DNA from: a virus
Taxonomy: Duplodnaviria; Heunggongvirae; Uroviricota; Caudoviricetes
IMG/VR virus record: IMGVR_UViG_641522623_000003
Span: 1 to 11,078 of that record
Strand: one strand, 5' to 3'
Length of the DNA stretch: 11,078 nucleotides
Below are positions 1 to 11,078 of this stretch, piece after piece. Position numbers and translations under genes: made by a program. The notes under the pieces were generated by a model, which worked only from the letters and a program-made list of their open reading frames with translations, made no database searches and was not told the DNA's origin. Each line of letters begins with the position of its first letter. Within the stretch, counting starts at the first letter, position 1.

Positions 1-477
1 ATGAAACTCATCAGTAACGATCTGCGCGATGGCGATAAATTGCCGCATCGTCATGTCTTTAACGGCATGGGTTACGATGGCGATAATATTTCACCGCATC
101 TGGCGTGGGATGATGTTCCTGCGGGAACGAAAAGTTTTGTTGTCACCTGCTACGACCCGGATGCGCCAACCGGCTCCGGCTGGTGGCACTGGGTAGTTGT
201 TAACTTACCCGCTGATACCCGCGTATTACCGCAAGGGTTTGGCTCTGGTCTGGTAGCAATGCCAGACGGCGTTTTGCAGACGCGTACCGACTTTGGTAAA
301 ACCGGGTACGATGGCGCAGCACCGCCGAAAGGCGAAACTCATCGCTACATTTTTACCGTTCACGCGCTGGATATAGAACGTATTGATGTCGATGAAGGTG
401 CCAGCGGCGCGATGGTCGGGTTTAACGTTCATTTCCACTCTCTGGCAAGCGCCTCGATTACTGCGATGTTTAGTTAA
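1..477 (+). CDS. ybhB: PEBP/RKIP-family protein YbhB (host gene on the bio side of attB)
   Basis: 158-aa ORF starting at window position 1 and ending TAA 475..477. The translation (…DPDAPTGSGWWHWVVVNLP…HRYIFTVHALD…) is recognised as E. coli YbhB. Recognition is from memory, not a search. Confidence 0.9.
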   Translation: MKLISNDLRDGDKLPHRHVFNGMGYDGDNISPHLAWDDVPAGTKSFVVTCYDPDAPTGSGWWHWVVVNLPADTRVLPQGFGSGLVAMPDGVLQTRTDFGKTGYDGAAPPKGETHRYIFTVHALDIERIDVDEGASGAMVGFNVHFHSLASASITAMFS

Positions 478-567: not shown

Positions 568-582
568 TTAGTATAAAAAAGC
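568..582 (-). other. attR core (15-bp lambda-type overlap/core sequence)
   Basis: TTAGTATAAAAAAGC is the reverse complement of GCTTTTTTATACTAA. It is flanked on the ybhB side by CGCTCAAG (B' arm) and on the prophage side by CTGAAC... (P arm). Confidence 0.9.
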
Positions 583-865: not shown

Positions 866-1238
866 TTTCATTTATCTCCGCCCGGAAACTTCTTATACAA
901 AGTCGATACGCCAACATCATAGATGATCGCCACCTTCTGGCGAGAAACTCCTGATGCAATTAGTCGTCCAGCCTGCGCTCATTGCTCCGGCGTGAGAGTA
1001 AGACAGTAAACTGTAGAAAAATCTCATTAAACTTAATATAATAATAAGTTACAAAATTATCTTTACTGAATAATAGATATATGAACATTAGTGAACTTAA
1101 AAACTGTATACACTATGAAGTAATAGGTTATAAACGCCCTTTCTCCTGGCGAAAAGCAATTGTTCGCGCAATAAAACACAGAAGATTACGTTATTTATTT
1201 TGGTGGCGCATAGCAAAATATCTGGTAATGACTCCAAC

Positions 1239-1616
1239 TTATTGATAGTGTTTTATGTTCAGATAATGCCCGATGATTTTGTCATGCAGCTCCACCGATT
1301 TTGAGAACGACAGCGACTTCCGTCCCAGCCGTGCCAGGTGCTGCCTCAGATTCAGGTTATGCCGCTCAATGCGCTGAGTGTAACGCTTGCTGATAACGTG
1401 CAGCTTTCCCTTCAGGCGGGATTCATACAGCGGCCAGCCATCCGTCATCCATATCACCACGTCAAAGGGTGACAGCAGGCTCATAAGACGCCCCAGCGTC
1501 GCCATAGTGCGTTCACCGAATACGTGCGCAACAACCGTCTTCCGGAGCCTGTCATACGCGTAAAACAGCCAGCGCTGGCGCGATTTAGCCCCGACGTATC
1601 CCCACTGTTCGTCCAT
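1239..1616 (-). CDS. insB: IS1 insB reading frame (C-terminal catalytic part of InsAB' transposase)
   Basis: 125-aa track [25 protein letters not shown]…HYLNIKHYQ. The insB frame extends upstream to the A6C site. The nominal insB ATG (minus strand 1742..1740) is followed by TAG at codon 11 (1712..1710), where copy B has TGG. Confidence 0.85.
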
Positions 1617-1660
1617 TTCCGCGCAGACGATGACGTCACTGCCCGGCTGTATGCGCGAGG

Positions 1661-1936
1661 TTACCGACTGCGGCCTGAGTTTTTTAAGTGACGTAAAATC
1701 GTGTTGAGGCTAACGCCCATAATGCGTGCAGTTGCCCGGCATCCAACGCCATTCATGGCCATATCAATGATTTTCTGGTGCGTACCGGGTTGAGAAGCGG
1801 TGTAAGTGAACTGCAGTTGCCATGTTTTACGGCAGTGAGAGCAGAGATAGCGCTGATGTCCGGCGGTGCTTTTGCCGTTACGCACCACCCCGTCAGTAGC
1901 TGAACAGGAGGGACAGCTGATAGAAACAGAAGCCAC
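1661..1936 (-). CDS. insA: IS1 InsA (transposition repressor / N-terminal part of InsAB' transposase)
   Basis: 91-aa [42 protein letters not shown]…, the canonical IS1 InsA with its zinc-finger Cys motif. Confidence 0.9.
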
Positions 1937-2024
1937 TGGAGCACCTCAAAAACACCATCATACACTAAATCAGTAAGTTGGCAGCATCACCCGTTTTTCG
2001 TTATGTATAAATAAGGAGCACACC

Positions 2025-2189
2025 ATGCAATATGCCATTGCAGGGTGGCCTGTTGCTGGCTGCCCTTCCGAATCTTTACTTGAACGAATCACCCGTAAAT
2101 TACGTGACGGATGGAAACGCCTTATCGACATACTTAATCAGCCAGGAGTCCCGAAAAATGGATCAAACAATTATGGCTATCCAGACTAA
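2025..2189 (+). CDS. cIII: Lambda cIII (FtsH/HflB protease inhibitor, stabilises CII)
   Basis: ATG 2025, stop TAA 2187..2189. Translation [54 protein letters not shown] (54 aa). Upstream TTATGTATAAATAAGGAGCACACC includes the RBS. The gene is below the ORF-track length cutoff. Confidence 0.85.
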   Translation: MQYAIAGWPVAGCPSESLLERITRKLRDGWKRLIDILNQPGVPKNGSNNYGYPD

Positions 2190-2301
2190 ATTCACTATCG
2201 CCACTTTTATTGGCGATGAAAAGATGTTTCGTGAGGCCGTCGACGCTTATAAAAAATGGATATTAATACAGAAACTGAGATCAAGCAAAAGCATTCACTA
2301 A
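2158..2301 (+). CDS. kil: Lambda Kil (host cell-division inhibitor)
   Basis: 47-aa [50 protein letters not shown]. It overlaps the cIII 3' end by 32 nt as in lambda. The longer track ORF 2032..2301 is an upstream extension of this frame. Confidence 0.8.
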
Positions 2302-2376
2302 CCCCCTTTCCTGTTTTCCTAATCAGCCTGGCATTTCGCGGGCGATATTTTCACAGCCATTTTCAGGAGTTCAGCC

Positions 2377-2673
2377 ATGAACGCTTATTACATTCAGGAT
2401 CGTCTTGAGGCTCAGAGCTGGGCACGTCACTACCAGCAGATCGCCCGTGAAGAGAAAGAGGCAGAACTGGCAGACGACATGGAAAAAGGCCTGCCCCAGC
2501 ACCTGTTTGAATCGCTATGCATCGATCATTTGCAACGCCACGGGGCCAGCAAAAAAGCCATTACCCGTGCGTTTGATGACGATGTTGAGTTTCAGGAGCG
2601 CATGGCAGAACACATCCGGTACATGGTTGAAACCATTGCTCACCACCAGATTGATATTGATTCAGAGGTATAA
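2377..2673 (+). CDS. gam: Lambda Gam, short form (RecBCD inhibitor)
   Basis: 98-aa [63 protein letters not shown]…, recognised as lambda GamS. The upstream long-form start (ATG 2256) is out of frame here. Confidence 0.9.
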
Positions 2674-2678
2674 AACGG

Positions 2679-3464
2679 ATGAGTACAGCACTCGCAACGC
2701 TGGCTGGGAAGCTGGCTGAACGTGTCGGCATGGATTCTGTCGACCCACAGGAACTGATCACAACTCTTCGCCAGACGGCATTTAAATGTGATGCCAGCGA
2801 TGCGCAGTTCATCGCATTGTTGATCGTCGCCAACCAGTACGGCCTTAATCCGTGGACGAAAGAAATCTACGCCTTCCCTGATAAGCAGAACGGCATCGTT
2901 CCGGTGGTGGGCGTTGATGGCTGGTCCCGCATCATCAATGAAAACCAGCAGTTTGATGGCATGGACTTTGAGCAGGACAATGAATCCTGTACATGCCGGA
3001 TTTACCGCAAGGACCGTAATCATCCGATCTGCGTTACCGAATGGATGGATGAATGCCGCCGCGAACCATTCAAAACTCGCGAAGGCAGAGAAATCACGGG
3101 GCCGTGGCAGTCGCATCCCAAACGGATGTTACGGCATAAAGCTATGATTCAGTGTGCCCGTCTCGCCTTCGGATTTGCTGGTATCTATGACAAGGATGAA
3201 GCCGAGCGCATTGTCGAAAATACCGCATACACTGCAGAACGTCAGCCGGAACGCGACATCACTCCGGTTAACGATGAAACCATGCAGGAGATTAACACTC
3301 TGCTGATCGCCCTGGATAAAACATGGGATGACGACTTATTGCCGCTCTGTTCCCAGATATTTCGCCGCGACATTCGCGCATCGTCAGAACTGACACAGGC
3401 CGAAGCAGTGAAAGCTCTTGGATTCCTGAAACAGAAAGCCACTGAGCAGAAGGTGGCAGCATGA
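2679..3464 (+). CDS. bet: Lambda Bet (Red-beta single-strand annealing protein)
   Basis: 261-aa [38 protein letters not shown]…, full length. Start lies 6 nt after the gam stop. Confidence 0.95.
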
Positions 3465-4141
3465 CACCGGACATTATCCTGCAGCGTACCGGGATCGACG
3501 TGAGAGCTGTCGAACAGGGGGATGATGCATGGCACAAATTACGGCTCGGCGTCATCACCGCTTCAGAAGTTCACAACGTGATAGCAAAGCCCCGCTCAGG
3601 AAAGAAGTGGCCTGACATGAAAATGTCCTACTTCCACACCCTGCTGGCTGAGGTTTGCACCGGTGTGGCTCCGGAAGTTAATGCTAAGGCGCTGGCCTGG
3701 GGAAAACAGTACGAGAACGACGCCAGAACCCTGTTTGAATTCACTTCCGGCGTGAATGTTACTGAATCCCCGATCATCTATCGCGACGAAAATATGCGCA
3801 CTGCCTGCTCTCCCGATGGTTTATGCAGTGACGGCAACGGCCTTGAGCTGAAATGCCCGTTTACCTCCCGGGATTTCATGAAGTTCCGGCTCGGTGGTTT
3901 CGAGGCCATAAAGTCGGCTTACATGGCCCAGGTGCAGTACAGCATGTGGGTGACACGTAAAGATGCCTGGTACTTTGCCAACTATGACCCGCGTATGAAG
4001 CGTGAAGGACTGCATTATGTCGTGGTTGAGCGGGATGAAAAGTACATGGCGAGTTTTGACGAGATGGTGCCGGAGTTCATCGAAAAAATGGACGAGGCAC
4101 TGGCTGAAATTGGTTTTGTATTTGGGGAGCAATGGCGATGA
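3461..4141 (+). CDS. exo: Lambda Exo (Red-alpha 5'-3' dsDNA exonuclease)
   Basis: 226-aa [41 protein letters not shown]…, full length. ATGA overlap with the bet stop. Confidence 0.95.
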
Positions 4142-4320
4142 CGCATCCTCACGATAATATCCGGGTAGGCGCAATCACTTTCGTCTACTCCGTTACAAAG
4201 CGAGGCTGGGTATTTCCCGGCCTTTCTGTTATCCGAAATCCACTGAAAGCACAGCGGCTGGCTGAGGAGATAAATAATAAACGAGGGGCTGTATGCACAA
4301 AGCATCTCCTGTTGAGTTAA
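4138..4320 (+). CDS. Lambda exo-xis region protein, orf60a-like
   Basis: 60-aa [63 protein letters not shown], starting in an ATGA overlap with the exo stop. An alternative ATG at 4132 would give 62 aa. Position and length match lambda orf60a. Confidence 0.7.
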
Positions 4321-4484
4321 GAACGAGTATCGAGATGGCACATAGCCTTGCTCAAATTGGAATCAGGTTTGTGCCAATACCAGTAGAAACAGACGAAGAA
4401 TTTCATACGTTAGCCACATCCCTTTCACAAAAACTGGAAATGATGGTGGCGAAAGCAGAAGCAGATGAGAGAGACCAGGTATGA
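4293..4484 (+). CDS. Lambda exo-xis region protein, orf63-like
   Basis: 63-aa [66 protein letters not shown]. It overlaps orf60a by 28 nt, the same arrangement as lambda orf60a/orf63. Confidence 0.65.
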   Translation: MHKASPVELRTSIEMAHSLAQIGIRFVPIPVETDEEFHTLATSLSQKLEMMVAKAEADERDQV

Positions 4485-4494
4485 CAACCACTGA

Positions 4495-4776
4495 ATGCAT
4501 TTTTCTGGCAGCGGGCTTCATATTCTGTGTGCTTATGCTTGCCGACATGGGGCTTGTTCAGTGACACCTCAGCAGGAAAACGCCCTTCGCAGCATTGCCC
4601 GTCAGGCTAATTCTGAAATCAAAAAAGCCAGACAGCAGTTTCCGGATAAAAACGTCGATGACATTTGCCGTAGCGTACTGAAGAAGCACCGCGAAACGGT
4701 AACGCTGATGGGATTCACACCGACTCATTTAAGCCTAGCAATCGGCATGTTAAACGGCGTTTTTAAGGAACGGTGA
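4495..4776 (+). CDS. Hypothetical protein in exo-xis region (occupies the lambda orf61 position but differs in length)
   Basis: 93-aa ORF; start uncertain, with an in-frame GTG at 4561 as an alternative. An ATG at 4465 in the same frame is followed by TGA at 4492..4494. A 27-codon hydrophobic ORF (4481..4564, MTTTECIFLAAGFIFCVLMLADMGLVQ) overlaps in another frame. Confidence 0.45.
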   Translation: MHFSGSGLHILCAYACRHGACSVTPQQENALRSIARQANSEIKKARQQFPDKNVDDICRSVLKKHRETVTLMGFTPTHLSLAIGMLNGVFKER

Positions 4777-4798
4777 ACATGAAAAGCAAAATCATCAG

Positions 4799-4820
4799 GG
4801 AGCTACAGGCTCCTTTTTTA
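4799..4820 (+). terminator. Weak stem-loop plus U-tract
   Basis: GGAGC (4799..4803) / GCTCC (4809..4813) 5-bp stem followed by TTTTTTA. Lies between the hypothetical ORF and the TraR-like ORF. Confidence 0.25.
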
Positions 4821-4874
4821 TTATTCGCATTCACCCTCAAGCGTATTAACCAACAATTCAGGGATTAATGAAAG

Positions 4875-5096
4875 ATGGCAGACATCATTGATTCAGCATC
4901 AGAAATTGAAGAATTACAGCGCAACACAGCAATAAAAATGCGCCGCCTGAACCACCAGGCTATATCTGCCACTCATTGTTGTGAGTGTGGCGATCCGATA
5001 GATGAACGAAGACGCCTGGCCGTTCAGGGTTGTCGGACTTGTGCAAGTTGCCAGGAGGATCTGGAACTTATCAGTAAACAGAGAGGTTCGAAGTGA
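4875..5096 (+). CDS. TraR/DksA-family C4 zinc-finger protein (lambda Orf73-like)
   Basis: 73-aa ORF with CxxC…(17)…CxxC (CCECGDPIDERRRLAVQGCRTCASC). Size and position between orf61 and ea22 fit the lambda TraR homologue. Confidence 0.8.
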   Translation: MADIIDSASEIEELQRNTAIKMRRLNHQAISATHCCECGDPIDERRRLAVQGCRTCASCQEDLELISKQRGSK

Positions 5097-5506
5097 GCGT
5101 AATTCACTCTCAGGCACTGCGTGAAGCGGCAGAGCAGGCAATGCATGACAACTGGGGATTTGACGCGGACCTTTTCCATGAGCTGGTAACACCATCGATT
5201 GTGCTGACACTGCTGGATGAACGGGAAAGAAACCAGCAGTACATCAAACGCCGCGACCAGGAGAACGAGGATATTGCGCTAACGGTGAGGAAACTGCGTG
5301 TTGAGCTGGAGACAGCAAAAATCAAAACTCAACGAGCAGCGTGAGTAGAAGGTGTTATCTCGGATGGAAGTAAGCGTATTGCTGAACTGGAGGCCTGGGT
5401 TGAATACACAAGAGCTGCATACGTAAGAGCAAAAGACAAGGGAGATTTGATCAGAGTTATTACCCGACAACCAACGGGATTTTACGCTTACGTACCATGT
5501 AATTAG
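5093..5506 (+). pseudogene. ea22-like gene, interrupted by in-frame TGA and shortened
   Basis: GTG start 5093 overlaps the upstream stop. 83 codons (MSVIHSQALREAAEQAMHDNWGFDADLF…) run to TGA 5342..5344. The same frame then stays open for 53 more codons (VEGVISDGSKRIAELEAWVEYTRAAYVRAKDKGDL…) to TAG 5504..5506, with no in-frame start. Confidence 0.45.
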
Positions 5507-5590
5507 GAATCCTTGAAGTGGCAGCCTAACTGCGGATACACTGAAATGGCGATTTGGTAACATGTTTCGCACAAGGGTAGTGACTCCAAC

Positions 5591-6094
5591 TTACTGATAG
5601 TGTTTTATGTTCAGATAATGCCCGATGACCTTGTCATGCAGCTCCACCGATTTTGAGAACGACAGCGACTTCCGTCCCAGCCTTGCCAGATGTTGTCTCA
5701 GATTCAGATTATGTCGCTCAATGCGCTGAGTGTAACGCTTGCTGATAACGTGCAGCTTTCCCTTCAGGCGTGATTCATACAGCGGCCAGCCATCCGTCAT
5801 CCATACCACGACCTCAAAGGCCGACAGCAGGCTCAGAAGACGCTCCAGTGTGGCCAGAGTGCGTTCACCGAAAACGTGCGCCACAACTGTCCTCCGTATC
5901 CTGTCATACGCGTAAAACAGCCAGCGCTGACGTGATTTAGCACCGACGTAGCCCCACTGTTCGTCCATTTCCGCGCAGACGATGACGTCACTGCCCGGCT
6001 GTATGCGCGAGGTTACCGACTGCGGCCTGAGTTTTTTAAATGGCGGAAAATCGTGTTGAGGCCAACGCCCATAATGCGGGCGGTTGCCCGGCAT
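5591..6094 (-). CDS. insB: IS1 InsB (full 167-aa insB frame)
   Basis: 167-aa [19 protein letters not shown]…[10 protein letters not shown]6C frameshift motif present (plus-strand GAGTTTTTTAAA, ~6029..6040). Confidence 0.9.
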
Positions 6095-6288
6095 CCAACG
6101 CCATTCATGGCCATATCAATGATTTTCTGGTGCGTACCGGGTTGAGAAGCGGTGTAAGTGAACTGCAGTTGCCATGTTTTACGGCAGTGAGAGCAGAGAT
6201 AGCGCTGATGTCCGGCAGTGCTTTTGCCGTTACGCACCACCCCGTCAGTAGCTGAACAGGAGGGACAGCTGATAGAAACAGAAGCCAC
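6013..6288 (-). CDS. insA: IS1 InsA
   Basis: 91-aa ORF, 2 aa different from copy A (…[19 protein letters not shown]). Confidence 0.9.
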
Positions 6289-6400
6289 TGGAGCACCTCA
6301 AAAACACCATCATACACTAAATCAGTAAGTTGGCAGCATCACCCGCTTAAAGATAATCAGCCATGATTAAACGCTTTGTAAAAAGTAAAAGGAAATTACA

Positions 6401-7015
6401 ATGAAAAAATCAATACTAATTTTAGGGCTTACGTTAATTGTCTCATCTCAAATACCATCGGCAATGGCAAAAAATGAATCAAGACTTTGGGTTGTTGTTG
6501 ATCGAACGGAAAGACATACCTGCCCTTCAAGTAAATGTGGAGTGGCTGGGAAACTATTTTTCAGGGAAGGCGTAGATTTTCTAGAAAAAAAAGGTGAATG
6601 GGTTCGTATAACTGAGCCATATTCAGCCTCATGTGTGGGAGGGGAAAGCGAATATATTAAAGAAGGTAATAAATCCTGCACAAGAAAAAACGGAATCGTC
6701 AATGGCAAGTTTTCAGAATGGGTTAAACTTAGTGATCTTAGCAGTGAAAGGCCATCAGATCCTGCTGAAAATGCGAGCGGAGATGATACTTTAATCAAAG
6801 GATCTGATGACTACCGTATATACAAAAAAGAGTTTTCTTCGGCAGCTAGGAAGTTAATAAACGAAGGGGTCTGCACGGAAAGCGACTTTAAGGAAATCGG
6901 AGGGTGGATGGCATCAAGCAATAAGGGGAAAAACATCTATTTCACATATTGCGGAGGAATGACGTTGTCGAACAGAATATACCTAGACGTTAAAAGTGGA
7001 AAGACTTTTAGATAA
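6401..7015 (+). CDS. Secreted (Sec signal peptide) Cys-containing hypothetical protein, accessory cargo
   Basis: 204-aa ORF with RBS AAGGA 8 nt upstream. N-terminus MKKSILILGLTLIVSSQIPSAMA↓KNE is a typical signal peptide with AxA cleavage site and no lipobox. Mature part has 6 Cys. The gene is visibly AT-rich versus the flanking lambda genes. No family recognised by eye. Confidence 0.7.
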   Translation: MKKSILILGLTLIVSSQIPSAMAKNESRLWVVVDRTERHTCPSSKCGVAGKLFFREGVDFLEKKGEWVRITEPYSASCVGGESEYIKEGNKSCTRKNGIVNGKFSEWVKLSDLSSERPSDPAENASGDDTLIKGSDDYRIYKKEFSSAARKLINEGVCTESDFKEIGGWMASSNKGKNIYFTYCGGMTLSNRIYLDVKSGKTFR

Positions 7016-7086
7016 TATGATATTACCAATGACAGTATTAATTTAATGCCTCCATAGAATTATCTCTAGGAAGTATGTATAAGAAA

Positions 7087-7120
7087 AGCCCGCACAATGA
7101 GCTGCTGCGGGCTTTGTGTT
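7087..7120 (+). terminator. Rho-independent terminator candidate downstream of secreted-protein gene
   Basis: Stem AGCCCGCA (7087..7094) / TGCGGGCT (7106..7113) with an 11-nt loop, followed by TTGTGTT. Confidence 0.5.
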
Positions 7121-7308
7121 ATTCGCCATATTTTATGAAGCAAATACGACACTATAGATAATTAAGCGTTGCTGGTTGTCGATTCCTCACTCACTCCTGT
7201 TGATGGCTCTCTTCTTGTATGTGCCATTGAAGGGTAATATCGAGTAAAAAGATACCGGAAGTATCCGCGCCGCCATGATTGTCTTTCTCCTAATGCAGGA
7301 AAAGCAGA

Positions 7309-7428
7309 ATGGCTAAATCATCAGCAGAGCGCAAAGTCGATCAGAGAGCCAAGCAAGCATCATCCGGTATGCGTAAGCTGGAGCTTGTACTTGATGCTCA
7401 GGAAATTGAAATGCTGGATCGTAACTGA
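7309..7428 (+). CDS. Small hypothetical ORF (39 aa) whose frame continues past its TGA stop
   Basis: ATG 7309 with AGGAAA 10 nt upstream. Translation MAKSSAERKVDQRAKQASSGMRKLELVLDAQEIEMLDRN, stop TGA 7426..7428. The same frame continues 72 codons to TAA 7645..7647 (ATRRFRHAPYEFGEYIALLSRQDDARVRWRIKSISRKRCGKCGERVPVNSCPCNGDSQCWVTKGWHETKLMI) with no ATG. Confidence 0.35.
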   Translation: MAKSSAERKVDQRAKQASSGMRKLELVLDAQEIEMLDRN

Positions 7429-7675
7429 GCCACGCGCCGCTTCAGGCATGCGCCTTACGAGTTTGGTGAGTACATCGCGTTACTGAGCCGCCAGGATGAT
7501 GCACGTGTGCGCTGGCGTATAAAATCGATCAGCAGAAAACGTTGCGGTAAGTGCGGCGAGAGAGTTCCTGTTAATTCATGCCCGTGTAATGGTGACTCAC
7601 AATGCTGGGTGACCAAAGGCTGGCACGAAACAAAATTAATGATATAAATCTCTGTGACATGTCACGGAGGCGGCA

Positions 7676-8104
7676 ATGAAATTAGACCAGCAATATCTAA
7701 AAGATCTACTTATCGCATTCGAAAAAACTCATGGCCCTGACACGATGCTTAGTGAACTAGAGGATAATGGCTTTAATAGATATGACCAAAATTTTATTTT
7801 CCATATGCGATTATTATGCGACTACGAATTAATAGTCAGGGTTGATGGAAAACCTGGGTTCGGTCATATAATGTCCAACGAGTTAGGGGAAGGTGTTGGA
7901 TATAGTTGGATCGAAGTACCACTGAGGTTGACAGCAAGAGGGCATGATTTTATTGCTGACTTGCGTCAAAAGGAGGTCTGGCAAACTATAAAAACAAACT
8001 TTAAGGATGAGGGAATTAGTACACTAATAAGTGTTTCAAAATCACTAGCAAAAGGCTTTGCAAGGAAAAAGATAAAAGATATTACAGGAATAGATATTGA
8101 ATAA
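7676..8104 (+). CDS. DUF2513-like hypothetical protein (putative winged-helix), accessory cargo at the lambda ea8.5 position
   Basis: 142-aa ORF with strong RBS GGAGG (7666..7670) 5 nt before the ATG. AT-rich codon usage. The motif …RLTARGHDFIADLRQKEVWQTIK… and a basic C-terminal tail resemble my memory of DUF2513 proteins (…LTWxGHEFLDAIRD…VW…). Confidence 0.65.
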   Translation: MKLDQQYLKDLLIAFEKTHGPDTMLSELEDNGFNRYDQNFIFHMRLLCDYELIVRVDGKPGFGHIMSNELGEGVGYSWIEVPLRLTARGHDFIADLRQKEVWQTIKTNFKDEGISTLISVSKSLAKGFARKKIKDITGIDIE

Positions 8105-8186
8105 TTCTTAGCATCAGCAACTACTGCCTTTGGTGGAAATTATATCTGAACTCGCTACGGCGAGTTTTGTTTTATGGAGATGATAA

Positions 8187-8354
8187 ATGCACTTCCGAGT
8201 CACAGGTGAATGGAATGGAGAACCATTCAACAGAGTTATCGAAGCAGAGAACATCAATGACTGCTATGACCACTGGATGATATGGGCGCAGATAGCACAT
8301 GCAGACATAACCAATATTCGAATTGAAGAACTGAAAGAACACCAAGCCGCCTGA
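8187..8354 (+). CDS. Small lambda-like ORF upstream of xis (orf55-like)
   Basis: 55-aa ORF MHFRVTGEWNGEPFNRVIEAENINDCYDHWMIWAQIAHADITNIRIEELKEHQAA with RBS GGAGA 7 nt upstream. Length and position match the small ORF lambda carries between ea8.5 and xis. Confidence 0.55.
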   Translation: MHFRVTGEWNGEPFNRVIEAENINDCYDHWMIWAQIAHADITNIRIEELKEHQAA

Positions 8355-8366
8355 TGGCGGTTTTTT
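8346..8366 (+). terminator. Short stem-loop plus U-tract between orf55-like and xis
   Basis: CCGCC (8347..8351) / GGCGG (8356..8360) with loop TGAT, followed by TTTTTT (8361..8366). It overlaps the orf55 stop codon. Confidence 0.4.
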
Positions 8367-8393
8367 CTTGCGTGTAATTGCGGAGACTTTGCG

Positions 8394-8612
8394 ATGTACT
8401 TGACACTTCAGGAGTGGAACGCTCGCCAGCGACGCCCAAGAAGCCTTGAAACAGTTCGTCGATGGGTGCGCGAATGCAGGATATTCCCTCCTCCGGTTAA
8501 GGATGGAAGAGAATATCTGTTCCACGAATCAGCGGTAAAGGTTGACTTAAATCGACCAGTAACAGGTAGCCTTTTGAAGAGGATCAGAAATGGGAAGAAG
8601 GCGAAGTCATGA
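8394..8612 (+). CDS. xis: Lambda excisionase Xis
   Basis: 72-aa ORF MYLTLQEWNARQRRPRSLETVRRWVRECRIFPPPVKDGREYLFHESAVKVDLNRPVTGSLLKRIRNGKKAKS. Its 3' end overlaps int by 23 nt as in lambda. Confidence 0.92.
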   Translation: MYLTLQEWNARQRRPRSLETVRRWVRECRIFPPPVKDGREYLFHESAVKVDLNRPVTGSLLKRIRNGKKAKS

Positions 8613-9660
8613 GCGCCGGGATTTACCCCCTAACCTTTATATAAGAAACAATGGATATTACTGCTACAGGGACCCAAGGACGGGTAAAGAGTTTGGATTA
8701 GGCCGAGACAGGCGAATCGCAATCACTGAAGCTATACAGGCCAACATTGAGTTATTTTCAGGACACAAACACAAGCCTCTGACAGCGAGAATCAACAGTG
8801 ATAATTCCGTTACGTTACATTCATGGCTTGATCGCTACGAAAAAATCCTGGCCAGCAGAGGAATCAAGCAGAAGACACTCATAAATTACATGAGCAAAAT
8901 TAAAGCAATAAGGAGGGGTCTGCCTGATGCTCCACTTGAAGACATCACCACAAAAGAAATTGCGGCAATGCTCAATGGATACATAGACGAGGGAAAGGCG
9001 GCATCAGCCAAGTTAATCAGATCAACACTGAGCGATGCATTCCGAGAGGCTATGGCTGAAGGCCATATAACAACAAACCCGGTCGCAGCCACTCGCGCTG
9101 CAAAATCAGAGGTAAGGAGATCAAGACTTACGGCTGACGAATACCTGAAAATTTATCAAGCAGCAGAATCATCACCATGTTGGCTTAGACTTGCAATGGA
9201 ACTGGCTGTTGTTACCGGGCAGCGAGTTGGTGATTTATGCGAAATGAAGTGGTCTGATATCGTAGATGGATATCTTTATGTCGAGCAAAGCAAAACAGGC
9301 GTAAAAATTGCCATCCCAACAACATTGCATGTTGATGCTCTCGGGATATCAATGAAGGAAACACTTGATAAATGCAAAAAGATTCTTGGCGGAGAAACCA
9401 TAATTGCATCTACTCGTCGTGAACCGCTTTCATCCGGCACAGTATCAAGGTATTTTATGCGCGCACGAAAAGCATCAGGTCTCTCCTTCGAAGGGGATCC
9501 GCCAACCTTTCACGAGTTGCGCAGTTTGTCTGCAAGACTCTATGAGAAGCAGATAAGCGATAAATTTGCTCAACATCTTCTCGGGCATAAGTCGGACACC
9601 ATGGCATCACAGTATCGTGATGACAGAGGCAGGGAGTGGGACAAAATTGAAATCAAATAA
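8590..9660 (+). CDS. int: Lambda integrase Int (tyrosine recombinase)
   Basis: 356-aa ORF MGRRRSHERRDLPPNLYIRNNGYYCYRDPRTGKEFGLGRDRR… ending …HLLGHKSDTMASQYRDDRGREWDKIEIK. It carries the tyrosine-recombinase residues (…HELRSLSARLY…, catalytic Tyr in SQY) and is transcribed toward attL/ybhC. Confidence 0.95.
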   Translation: MGRRRSHERRDLPPNLYIRNNGYYCYRDPRTGKEFGLGRDRRIAITEAIQANIELFSGHKHKPLTARINSDNSVTLHSWLDRYEKILASRGIKQKTLINYMSKIKAIRRGLPDAPLEDITTKEIAAMLNGYIDEGKAASAKLIRSTLSDAFREAMAEGHITTNPVAATRAAKSEVRRSRLTADEYLKIYQAAESSPCWLRLAMELAVVTGQRVGDLCEMKWSDIVDGYLYVEQSKTGVKIAIPTTLHVDALGISMKETLDKCKKILGGETIIASTRREPLSSGTVSRYFMRARKASGLSFEGDPPTFHELRSLSARLYEKQISDKFAQHLLGHKSDTMASQYRDDRGREWDKIEIK

Positions 9661-9733: not shown

Positions 9734-9748
9734 TTAGTATAAAAAAGC
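9734..9748 (-). other. attL core (15-bp lambda-type overlap/core sequence)
   Basis: TTAGTATAAAAAAGC, identical to 568..582. Followed by AGGCTTCA, the reverse complement of the attB B arm TGAAGCCT. Confidence 0.9.
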
Positions 9749-9794: not shown

Positions 9795-11078
9795 GTGAAC
9801 ACATTTTCAGTTTCCCGTCTGGCGCTGGCATTGGCTTTTGGCGTGACGCTGACCGCCTGTAGCTCAACCCCGCCCGATCAACGTCCTTCTGATCAAACCG
9901 CGCCTGGTACCTCTTCTCGCCCGATTCTGTCGGCAAAAGAAGCGCAGAATTTCGATGCTCAACACTATTTTGCATCCCTGACACCAGGTGCTGCAGCGTG
10001 GAATCCTTCCCCGATTACCCTGCCTGCGCAACCTGAATTTGTTGTCGGCCCGGCGGGCACTCAAGGTGTAACGCATACCACGATTCAGGCGGCGGTAGAT
10101 GCGGCAATTATCAAGCGTACCAACAAGCGCCAGTATATTGCCGTGATGCCTGGTGAGTATCAGGGAACGGTATATGTCCCTGCCGCTCCGGGTGGAATTA
10201 CTCTGTACGGTACAGGTGAAAAACCGATTGATGTGAAGATTGGGCTTTCCCTTGATGGTGGCATGAGCCCTGCCGACTGGCGTCACGACGTCAACCCGCG
10301 CGGCAAATATATGCCAGGTAAACCAGCGTGGTATATGTACGATAGCTGCCAGAGCAAACGCAGCGACAGTATCGGTGTTCTCTGCTCTGCGGTCTTCTGG
10401 TCACAAAACAATGGCCTGCAACTGCAAAATCTGACCATCGAAAACACGCTGGGCGATAGCGTAGATGCAGGTAACCATCCGGCGGTGGCACTGCGTACTG
10501 ATGGTGACCAGGTACAGATTAACAACGTTAACATTCTCGGTCGTCAGAACACCTTCTTTGTCACCAACAGCGGTGTGCAGAACCGTCTGGAAACGAATCG
10601 TCAGCCGCGTACGCTGGTGACCAACAGCTACATTGAAGGGGATGTGGATATCGTTTCTGGTCGCGGCGCAGTGGTGTTCGATAACACCGAATTCCGCGTG
10701 GTGAACTCACGTACTCAGCAAGAAGCGTATGTGTTTGCACCGGCTACGCTGTCCAACATTTACTACGGTTTCCTCGCCGTAAACAGCCGTTTCAATGCTT
10801 TCGGTGATGGTGTGGCGCAACTGGGCCGCTCGCTGGATGTTGATGCCAATACCAACGGTCAGGTGGTGATCCGTGATAGCGCCATCAACGAAGGTTTTAA
10901 CACGGCTAAACCGTGGGCCGATGCGGTGATCTCTAATCGTCCGTTTGCGGGTAATACCGGCAGCGTAGATGATAACGACGAAATACAGCGCAATCTGAAT
11001 GACACTAACTACAACCGCATGTGGGAATACAATAACCGCGGCGTGGGTAGTAAAGTGGTTGCAGAGGCGAAGAAGTAA
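9795..11078 (+). CDS. ybhC: Pectinesterase-family (CE8-like) outer-membrane lipoprotein YbhC
   Basis: 427-aa ORF with GTG start 9795 and lipoprotein signal MNTFSVSRLALALAFGVTLTAC (lipobox LTAC). Mature part has the right-handed beta-helix character of pectin methylesterases; recognised as E. coli YbhC. Stop at window end (TAA 11076..11078). Confidence 0.9.
   Translation: MNTFSVSRLALALAFGVTLTACSSTPPDQRPSDQTAPGTSSRPILSAKEAQNFDAQHYFASLTPGAAAWNPSPITLPAQPEFVVGPAGTQGVTHTTIQAAVDAAIIKRTNKRQYIAVMPGEYQGTVYVPAAPGGITLYGTGEKPIDVKIGLSLDGGMSPADWRHDVNPRGKYMPGKPAWYMYDSCQSKRSDSIGVLCSAVFWSQNNGLQLQNLTIENTLGDSVDAGNHPAVALRTDGDQVQINNVNILGRQNTFFVTNSGVQNRLETNRQPRTLVTNSYIEGDVDIVSGRGAVVFDNTEFRVVNSRTQQEAYVFAPATLSNIYYGFLAVNSRFNAFGDGVAQLGRSLDVDANTNGQVVIRDSAINEGFNTAKPWADAVISNRPFAGNTGSVDDNDEIQRNLNDTNYNRMWEYNNRGVGSKVVAEAKK

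Follow-up and report, generated by a model that had tools for sequence, protein, structure and literature searches.

The analysed stretch of DNA (the window, 11,078 nt) contains two complete copies of IS1 in the same orientation on either side of a cIII-exo-TraR segment, and neither copy has a target-site duplication. The arrangement raises two questions: (i) whether the pair forms a composite transposon with the lambda Red genes as its cargo; and (ii) whether the missing duplications mark places where prophage DNA was lost. Our results indicate that this is very probably a cryptic lambda-type prophage at the lambda att site of Escherichia coli ATCC 8739 (Crooks) that was eroded by two separate IS1 events.

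The prophage remnant and its two IS1 copies

The window matches the ATCC 8739 chromosome at 100% identity and contains a lambda-type prophage remnant of 9.1 kb between ybhB and ybhC (Table 1), which has already been catalogued for Crooks as "lambda-Cr" at ybhC-ybhB (Archer et al. 2011, PMC3032704). Its assignment follows from its location at the lambda attachment site, from two 15-bp att cores, and from int and xis beside attL. The att-core 15-mer, exact at both ends of the remnant, occurs once in phage Chlobot; the gene order of the left arm matches that of Chlobot and of many prophages at the same site, and positions 1992–5391 are 97.3–97.5% identical to phage lambda.

Table 1. Features of the prophage remnant and adjoining host genes (window coordinates)
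Feature	Position	Strand	Part of	Basis
ybhB, host gene, bio side of lambda att site	1–477	+		RefSeq annotation, identical ATCC 8739 record
attR, lambda att core (TTAGTATAAAAAAGC = complement of GCTTTTTTATACTAA)	568–582	.		direct repeat, exact 15-mer
hexapeptide-repeat 'serine acetyltransferase' 5' fragment, nt 1–143 of 546	1081–1223	+		b region; ended by IS1-A
IS1-A, complete, IS1SD-like isoform	1224–1991	-		RefSeq, Pfam, mapped breakpoints
lambda early-left segment bracketed by IS1-A and IS1-B	1992–5575	+		annotation, Pfam, lambda identity
cIII	2025–2189		early-left segment	annotation; Pfam Lambda_CIII
kil	2158–2301		early-left segment	annotation
gam	2377–2673		early-left segment	annotation; Pfam Gam
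bet	2679–3464		early-left segment	annotation; Pfam RecT
exo	3461–4141		early-left segment	annotation; Pfam YqaJ
DUF1317 gene	4138–4320		early-left segment	annotation
DUF1382 gene	4293–4484		early-left segment	annotation
hypothetical gene	4561–4776		early-left segment	annotation
TraR/DksA-like gene	4875–5096		early-left segment	annotation; Pfam zf-dskA_traR
ea22-like remnant	5141–5392		early-left segment	annotation; Pfam Ead_Ea22
IS1-B, complete, common unnamed IS1 isoform, intergenic	5576–6343	-		Pfam, empty-site alleles
hybrid promoter-like site	6330–6357	+		consensus match
remaining native left arm of prophage	6344–9660	+		annotation; gene order
204-aa ORF, hydrophobic N-terminus, no Pfam family	6401–7015		left arm	
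pseudogene fragments	within 6344–9660		left arm	annotation
DUF2513 gene	7676–8104		left arm	annotation
small ORF	8187–8354		left arm	annotation
xis	8394–8612		left arm	annotation
int	8590–9660		left arm	annotation
attL, lambda att core copy	9734–9748	.		direct repeat, exact 15-mer
ybhC, host gene, gal side of att site	9795–11078	+		annotation

Members of the IS1 family are about 768 bp long, end in imperfect inverted repeats of some 23 bp (GGTGATGCTGCCAACTTACTGAT / GGTAATGACTCCAACTTATTGAT), and usually generate a direct target duplication of 8–10 bp at their two ends. Both copies in the window, IS1-A and IS1-B, are complete at 768 bp. Each has IRR (GGTAATGAC / GGTAGTGAC) on the left and IRL (GGTGATGCTGCC, complement) on the right, which puts insA-insB on the minus strand each time and makes the pair direct repeats; the positions and orientation given for them in the first-pass annotation were confirmed, as was their bracketing of the cIII-exo-TraR segment. 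In either copy, 18 of the 23 positions are the same in IRL and IRR. The -1 frameshift motif (A6C) TTAAAAAAC, which links insA and insB', is at canonical position 305 in both, the InsAB' fusion of 232 aa is an open frame in both, and Zn_ribbon_InsA, HTH_Tnp_IS1 and DDE_Tnp_IS1 score far over the Pfam cut-offs in both transposases. In length, inverted repeats, frameshift site and transposase domains the copies thus resemble IS1A, IS1B and IS1SD of E. coli and Shigella, although neither has kept the usual target duplication.

In pairwise alignment the copies are 95.05% identical, with 38 differences over the 768 positions, 37 of them within canonical positions 262–764; InsAB' differs at 11 amino acids, of which the InsA part accounts for 2 and the InsB part for 9, and stretches of 126 and 134 bp are without any difference. 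IS1-B matches another IS1 at 309 kb in the same genome at 768 of 768 positions, as it does copies in many E. coli. The exact sequence of IS1-A, which RefSeq labels 'IS1-like element IS1SD family transposase, programmed frameshift', was found only at this locus, its nearest counterpart elsewhere being of the IS1SD type (99.2%); identities of the two copies to annotated IS1A and IS1B copies are 95–98.6%. The earlier proposal that the copies are different isoforms, acquired independently, is therefore upheld, the two having separate source copies. Our search of the ATCC 8739 genome located IS1 in 19 places, the number of IS1-family copies already recorded for Crooks (PMC3032704). The ATCC 8739 assemblies disagree inside IS1-A, a practical point for users of the strain.

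Flanks and junctions

IS1-A is flanked as AAAATATCT / IS1-A / CGTTTTTCG and IS1-B as TCGCACAAG / IS1-B / CGCTTAAAG. Scanning the flanks for repeats of k = 7–14 at offsets of 0–2 revealed no target-site duplication at either copy, and none in the cross pairs A-left/B-right (outer) and B-left/A-right (inner). The first-pass annotation had described both copies as lacking a duplication and had named matching 8–9 bp direct repeats as the observation that would speak for simple insertions; such repeats were absent. IS1 insertions elsewhere, used as positive controls, showed clean 9-bp duplications (GGAAATTAC in EP91B, GGTGCTGCG in CFSAN051542). We also considered a decayed or offset duplication at IS1-B, but the partial likeness of CGCACAAG and CGCTTAAAG is native sequence that borders the empty site to left and right. 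An assembly artefact can be dismissed because four ATCC 8739-lineage assemblies reproduce all four junctions. A target duplication is the mark of a fresh insertion, not of the IS1 element proper, and its absence here is attributable to the deletions mapped at IS1-A and IS1-B. Another IS1 in the same genome that lacks a duplication adjoins a truncated gene.

The left flank of IS1-A is the truncated acetyltransferase gene near attR, and its right flank begins 33 bp upstream of cIII. In relatives, native sequence crosses each of these breakpoints uninterrupted: the acetyltransferase gene, which has a Pfam Hexapep match, is intact in 1585m1, FDAARGOS_1277 and 81EVA, and L005 and L006 have the native continuation AAAATATCT followed by TTTTGATAAAGG. 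In 81EVA the two breakpoints are 31,294 bp apart, with tail, head, lysis, Q, nin, O/P, cII, cro, cI and sieB genes between them. Judged from these relatives, IS1-A is a true deletion junction that replaces at least 31 kb of prophage, bearing out the earlier reading of copy A as the point at which the region from N through the late genes was lost. The loss comprises the DUF2528/ea10-like gene upstream of cIII, sieB, N, and the immunity, replication, nin, Q, lysis, head and tail genes, and ends in the middle of the b-region acetyltransferase gene. Since no single reference genome has both the exact acetyltransferase allele and a complete early region, its size is an estimate from relatives, about 31 kb by 81EVA and about 39 kb on a genome the size of Chlobot.

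Conversely, IS1-B replaces just 10 bp, GCTGTTACTA, of an empty site that is found as CGCACAAG-GCTGTTACTA-CGCTTAAAG in the allele-matched FORC_081 and, with two SNPs, in PSJ-12, EP91B, 81EVA and Chlobot. The two base differences to the right of IS1-B (CGCTTAAAG versus CACTTAGAG) are not a junction scar, as the same allele is present in IS-free strains such as FORC_081. The first-pass annotation had placed copy B where the ea22-like gene runs out. This proved incorrect: the remnant ends 183 bp before the intergenic IS1-B, lambda homology stops at about 5391, and the same truncation is found in IS-free PSJ-12, PSS-13 and FORC_081 as well as in the isolated phage Chlobot. As a deletion junction, IS1-B is not comparable to IS1-A, and the view that flanks without duplications denote deletion junctions held for copy A, with its breakpoints 31,294 bp apart in 81EVA, but not for copy B, where only 10 bp are missing. 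A missing duplication alone is thus no sign of a large deletion.

How the duplications may have been lost

For both copies, the likeliest route would be ordinary insertion with a duplication, followed by one-sided loss of DNA. At IS1-A, this loss would have joined nt 143 of the acetyltransferase gene to the point 33 bp upstream of cIII, eliminating the genes from immunity to morphogenesis. IS1-B would have landed in an intergenic hot spot for IS1, with the ea22-like remnant on one side and the 204-aa ORF on the other, where a target of 10 bp is now missing instead of 9 bp being duplicated. The one-sided loss may have come about by intramolecular IS1 transposition (adjacent deletion), or a second IS1 pointing the same way may have been the partner in homologous recombination; by either mechanism one of the two duplicated sequences disappears, and here the end states of the two are identical. 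The cIII-kil-gam-bet-exo-TraR segment, which lies in its native position, is then simply what was left between the two events. Order of events and mechanism are what we infer from the end state, because the junctions are confined to four ATCC 8739-lineage records and no intermediate (one breakpoint occupied by an IS1 whose duplication is intact) was detected in 5,426 complete E. coli genomes; 120-bp probes for all four junctions matched in the ATCC 8739 lineage only.

That transposase catalysed both junctions, by classical IS1 adjacent deletion from an element resident at one breakpoint, is a serious candidate to which we assign slightly less than an even chance. IS1 is reportedly a classical deletion-former, as described by Reif and Saedler for the gal region. 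Each copy lacks a duplication, abuts both of its breakpoints exactly and encodes an intact InsAB', and small IS-adjacent deletions in the long-term evolution experiment were two-step events (PMC11708052). Two IS1 copies pointing the same way would, however, yield the same product by recombination, the genomes searched contained no intermediate, and at IS1-B the transposition target would have had to be only 19 bp from the IS end. A second event of only 19 bp (one duplicated sequence together with the missing 10 bp) is unusually short for intramolecular transposition.

RecA-type recombination between two normally inserted direct IS1 copies would leave a single hybrid IS1 with half of either duplication at its sides, and the structure predicted is the same as for adjacent deletion; we regard this route as possible, if somewhat doubtful. 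It is consistent with the 19 IS1-family copies of ATCC 8739 (PMC3032704), with the repeated occurrence of IS1 in this prophage (EP91B, OY754443, PSS-16, M171-1, PEC148, FDAARGOS_1277 and SCPM-O-B-12142), and with the visibly mosaic nature of IS1 isoforms. On the other hand, none of the genomes searched carried both parental insertions, and at IS1-B two same-orientation insertions only 19 bp apart would be needed. IS1-A also carries no locus-specific crossover signature: when it was considered as a chimera of resident isoforms, the table of variable sites displayed general mosaicism, with no crossover specific to the locus.

A one-step arrival of IS1-B, and possibly of IS1-A, in a pre-existing break or gap, with loss of target bases and no duplication, would account for the replacement of exactly 10 bp at an otherwise unchanged site and has been proposed by Ngan et al. 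for IS5 and IS481 (PMC11708052). However, all traceable small IS-plus-deletion events in that study were two-step, and in a static genome the outcome of one step looks the same as that of two; we consider such an arrival unlikely. IS1-B also contributes to a promoter-like site that faces the 204-aa ORF; its TTGGCA belongs to the end of IS1-B and is separated by a spacer of 16 nt from GATAAT in the flank. It is the best consensus match (10 of 12) within positions 1100–6500, and a candidate by consensus alone. That IS1-B arrived by a single non-canonical step that removed the 10 bp, for example at a break or gap, and thereby created a working hybrid promoter for this ORF seems to us quite improbable.

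The bracketed Red segment and known parallels

In composite transposons of the Tn9 type, direct IS1 repeats flank a cargo. The locus has this architecture, with two complete direct IS1 copies, all four ends intact, and 3.6 kb of non-IS DNA between them; their transposases are also intact. Unlike the Tn9 type, it has no flanking duplication, its cargo is native to the surroundings, its two IS1 diverge by 5%, and no other occurrence of the unit was found. The flanks at its outer ends, AAAATATCT and CGCTTAAAG, differ, so there is no duplication around the unit as a whole. In every IS-free relative and in Chlobot, the Red segment adjoins the sequence to the right of IS1-B as one contiguous stretch, and the inner segment is therefore native here. 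The full IS1-Red-IS1 configuration occurs in only four ATCC 8739-lineage records among 5,426 complete E. coli genomes. No plasmid-borne or relocated unit was found, the plasmid matches to the Red segment being lambda- or phage-type records without an IS1 bracket. Transposition of the block as a unit into the prophage remnant is accordingly extremely improbable, and we rejected it, as the sequences inside and outside the bracket are native neighbors. The earlier description of the pair as composite-transposon-like is thus apt for its architecture, but not for the origin or distribution of the Red segment. In principle, by analogy with Tn9, the IS1-Red-IS1 block might move as a unit, and recombination between the 768-bp direct repeats could delete the cIII-kil-gam-bet-exo-TraR segment. 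As ATCC 8739 is a production and test strain with intact-looking gam, bet and exo between these repeats, spontaneous loss of the 4.35-kb block is plausible and relevant to its users.

The locus is a case of ordinary IS-mediated prophage erosion and matters little past bookkeeping. It does provide a clean, well-controlled example of IS1 stripping a lambda prophage to int-xis and a Red/cIII arm, and FDAARGOS_1277 and 1585m1 have independent IS-associated deletions of this prophage. The lambda-Cr of Archer et al. 2011 (PMC3032704) is this very element and differs in nothing essential, while that paper does not seem to cover the precise breakpoints, the assignment of the two isoforms or the loss of 10 bp at IS1-B. 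Missing duplications have previously been ascribed to adjacent deletion or inter-IS recombination, and IS-associated deletions of two-step origin down to 14 bp are known from the long-term evolution experiment (PMC11708052). The elements without duplications described by Ngan et al. 2024 (PMC11708052) likewise adjoin missing DNA, 14 bp for IS150 there compared with 10 bp here, although IS150, IS5 and IS481 were followed in real time, whereas here the IS1 end state alone is available. Finally, the locus resembles IS-decayed cryptic lambdoid prophages such as DLP12, Rac and Qin of K-12 in being a defective prophage that retains int and xis along with some of the early-left operon, and in having an IS at a large internal deletion.

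Prophage locus and the two IS1 copies

The window is 100% identical over its 11,078 bases to positions 3138477-3149554 of the E. coli ATCC 8739 chromosome (NZ_CP022959.1), and three further ATCC 8739-lineage assemblies are near-identical to it. It contains two lambda att cores, the right one adjoined by annotated xis and int genes of lambda type (Table), which identifies the intervening 9.1 kb as a defective lambda-type prophage inserted at attB(lambda). Archer et al. 2011 (PMC3032704) catalogued the prophage at ybhC-ybhB as 'lambda-Cr' and counted 19 IS1-family elements in this strain.

Table. Features of the prophage locus and of the related record L005
Feature	Record	Position	Details
ybhB	window	1-477	annotation
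att core, left	window	568-582	15 bp, TTAGTATAAAAAAGC on window strand
Acetyltransferase gene start	window	1081-1223	143 bp
IS1-A	window	1224-1991	complete, 768 bp; insA-insB on minus strand; IRR left, IRL right
ea22-like remnant	window	5141-5392	pseudogene
IS1-B	window	5576-6343	complete, 768 bp; insA-insB on minus strand; IRR left, IRL right
Putative hybrid promoter	window	6330-6357	TTGGCA, 16 nt, GATAAT
204-aa ORF	window	6401-7015	
att core, right	window	9734-9748	15 bp, as left
ybhC	window	9795-11078	annotation
Intact acetyltransferase gene	L005	20604-21149	

The prophage at attB(lambda) occurs in many differently eroded forms, among them those of FDAARGOS_1277 (L006), 1585m1 (L007), FORC_081 (L009), and SCPM-O-B-12142 (L015). 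In one form, a deletion running from the tail fibre almost to xis is associated with IS1A; in another, loss of the early region is associated with ISEc52; a third has a ren'-recT' fusion deletion and no IS there. Within the window, a 22-nt inverted match (21/22 complementary) pairs positions 2863-2884, inside bet, with positions 6558-6579, inside the 204-aa ORF, and has no flanking similarity; we roughly estimate that chance would produce about 2e-4 such matches in 11 kb, and this one may be coincidence.

Both IS1 copies run from IRR on the left to IRL on the right, so that insA-insB is on the minus strand in each and the two form direct repeats; the first-pass annotation, which had reported two non-identical copies in direct orientation, placed them exactly. 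Pairwise comparison over 768 bp identified 38 differing positions (95.05% identity), 37 of them within canonical positions 262-764 and a single one within 1-261. The two copies share the -1 frameshift motif TTAAAAAAC, and both 232-aa InsAB' fusions are open, with Zn_ribbon_InsA, HTH_Tnp_IS1, and DDE_Tnp_IS1 domains and 11 residues differing between them. In copy A, codon 11 of the annotated insB frame is a TAG stop (window 1709-1711, minus strand), upstream of the frameshift site; the responsible base change also causes G76S in the InsA HTH region and leaves the InsAB' frame unaffected.

The proposal that these are different isoforms is borne out by their relatives. Copy B matches, at 768 of 768 positions, another ATCC 8739 IS1 at ~309 kb and copies in many other E. 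coli. Annotated IS1A/IS1B copies match copy A at 98.3-98.6%; its closest matches elsewhere (99.2%) are IS1SD-type copies, and its exact sequence is seen at this locus only. Copy B is therefore the common isoform and copy A IS1SD-like, indicating different source copies. The variable-site table reveals general mosaicism among IS1 isoforms. No target duplication flanks the ~309-kb copy (NZ_CP022959.1, ~309197-309964), which lies against tssD, a type VI secretion gene that is truncated there; IS1 copies lacking duplications beside lost DNA recur in the ATCC 8739 genome. In a second ATCC 8739 assembly (NZ_CP033020.1), copy A shows six clustered differences (canonical 262-304, window 1688-1730), at which the window and KCTC 2571 carry IS1SD-type bases and the second assembly B-type bases; this disagreement reflects gene conversion between IS1 copies in a laboratory sub-line, or else an artefact of polishing a multi-copy repeat. 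In the B-3008 assembly, copy A contains a gap of 4 bp.

Unequal losses at IS1-A and IS1-B

IS1-A is flanked by AAAATATCT (left) and CGTTTTTCG (right), and IS1-B by TCGCACAAG (left) and CGCTTAAAG (right). In agreement with the earlier reading, a scan for 7-14 bp duplications found none at the ends of IS1-A or IS1-B, and none when the outer or the inner flanks of the pair were compared. Ordinary IS1 insertions elsewhere have clean 9-bp duplications (GGAAATTAC in EP91B, GGTGCTGCG in CFSAN051542).

IS1-A marks the junction of a large deletion. To its left lies the first part of a 546-nt hexapeptide-repeat 'serine acetyltransferase' gene, which is intact in 1585m1, FDAARGOS_1277, and 81EVA, where tail-fibre assembly, tail-fibre, lom, and J-type genes follow; across the breakpoint the native gene reads ...AAAATATCT then TTTTGATAAAGG. 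To the right, the sequence resumes 33 bp upstream of cIII, a breakpoint preceded in the PSJ-12, EP91B, and 81EVA prophages and in phage Chlobot by ...CTTCACTCGAGG and a DUF2528 (ea10-like) gene. 81EVA carries both landmarks (L008 42981 and 11686), and relative to it the window lacks 31,294 bp, an interval comprising minor tail, tape-measure, capsid, terminase, lysis, Q, nin, O/P, cII, cro, repressor, and sieB genes; the proposal that copy A marks the loss of everything from N to the late genes is supported. On a genome of Chlobot size (46.5 kb), we estimate arithmetically that the equivalent loss would be roughly 39 kb. The interrupted acetyltransferase is a cargo gene beside attR in several lambda-type prophages, its place being taken in Chlobot by a glycosyltransferase; both may be surface-modification morons.

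IS1-B is not a comparable junction. It had been thought to sit where the ea22-like gene runs out, but it lies 183 bp past the remnant, between genes and before the 204-aa ORF, and damage by IS1-B is ruled out, as the same truncated, frameshifted pseudogene is annotated in the IS-free PSJ-12, PSS-13, and FORC_081. Since Chlobot, an isolated phage, has a corresponding short ORF and homology to lambda itself ends at ~5391, the truncation is an old mosaic joint. The empty site reads CGCACAAG-GCTGTTACTA-CACTTAGAG in PSJ-12, EP91B, 81EVA, and Chlobot, and CGCACAAG-GCTGTTACTA-CGCTTAAAG in FORC_081, which has exactly the window's allele. IS1-B stands in place of the 10 bp GCTGTTACTA in the window, with one G assignable to either the flank or the IS end.

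The ~250-bp intergenic stretch from remnant to ORF (window 5393-6400) was also entered by IS1 independently in EP91B, OY754443, and PSS-16. With IS1 in at least four lineages and IS5 in one, 81EVA (window, L003, L008, NZ_OY754443.1, NZ_AP027713.1), these repeated insertions identify it as a hot spot. At the right end of IS1-B, TTGGCA from the element and GATAAT from the flank form the best sigma-70-like match in 1100-6500 (10/12 consensus), a putative hybrid promoter that may, judged by consensus, serve the 204-aa ORF to which it points. The product of this ORF is hydrophobic at its N-terminus and matches no Pfam family. Hybrid promoters of this kind have long been known for IS1.

Routes to the junctions and standing of the IS1 pair

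Two standard routes to a duplication-less IS beside missing DNA, adjacent deletion and inter-IS recombination, are reviewed by Ngan et al. 2024 (PMC11708052), who show that in the long-term evolution experiment IS-associated deletions down to 14 bp were two-step events and who suggest that some events followed a one-step route. We place intramolecular transposition (adjacent deletion), the mechanism originally suggested, slightly ahead of recombination between two same-orientation IS1 copies, and consider a one-step origin unlikely; as no intermediate state of either deletion was found, the routes are inseparable here. The first-pass observation is confirmed, and its interpretation partly supported.

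Movement of IS1-Red-IS1 (the pair with the intervening cIII-to-ea22-like segment) as a unit is argued against by three results: in all IS-free relatives the Red segment runs without a break into the DNA right of IS1-B; the whole has no flanking duplication; and, among 5,426 genomes, only four ATCC 8739-lineage records contain the configuration or any of its four junctions, with no plasmid carrying it found. The Red segment is the remainder between two independent events, and its cIII-kil-gam-bet-exo genes have lost pL. Because the copies are identical to each other over stretches of 126 and 134 bp, the expected crossover sites (window 1731-1864 and 1866-1991 in copy A), recombination between them could delete the block, which would remove 4,352 bp; no such variant was seen. 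The biology is ordinary IS-mediated erosion of an already catalogued cryptic prophage. The suggested composite-transposon-like unit holds as architecture: like Tn9, it has direct IS1 copies with intact ends and transposases.
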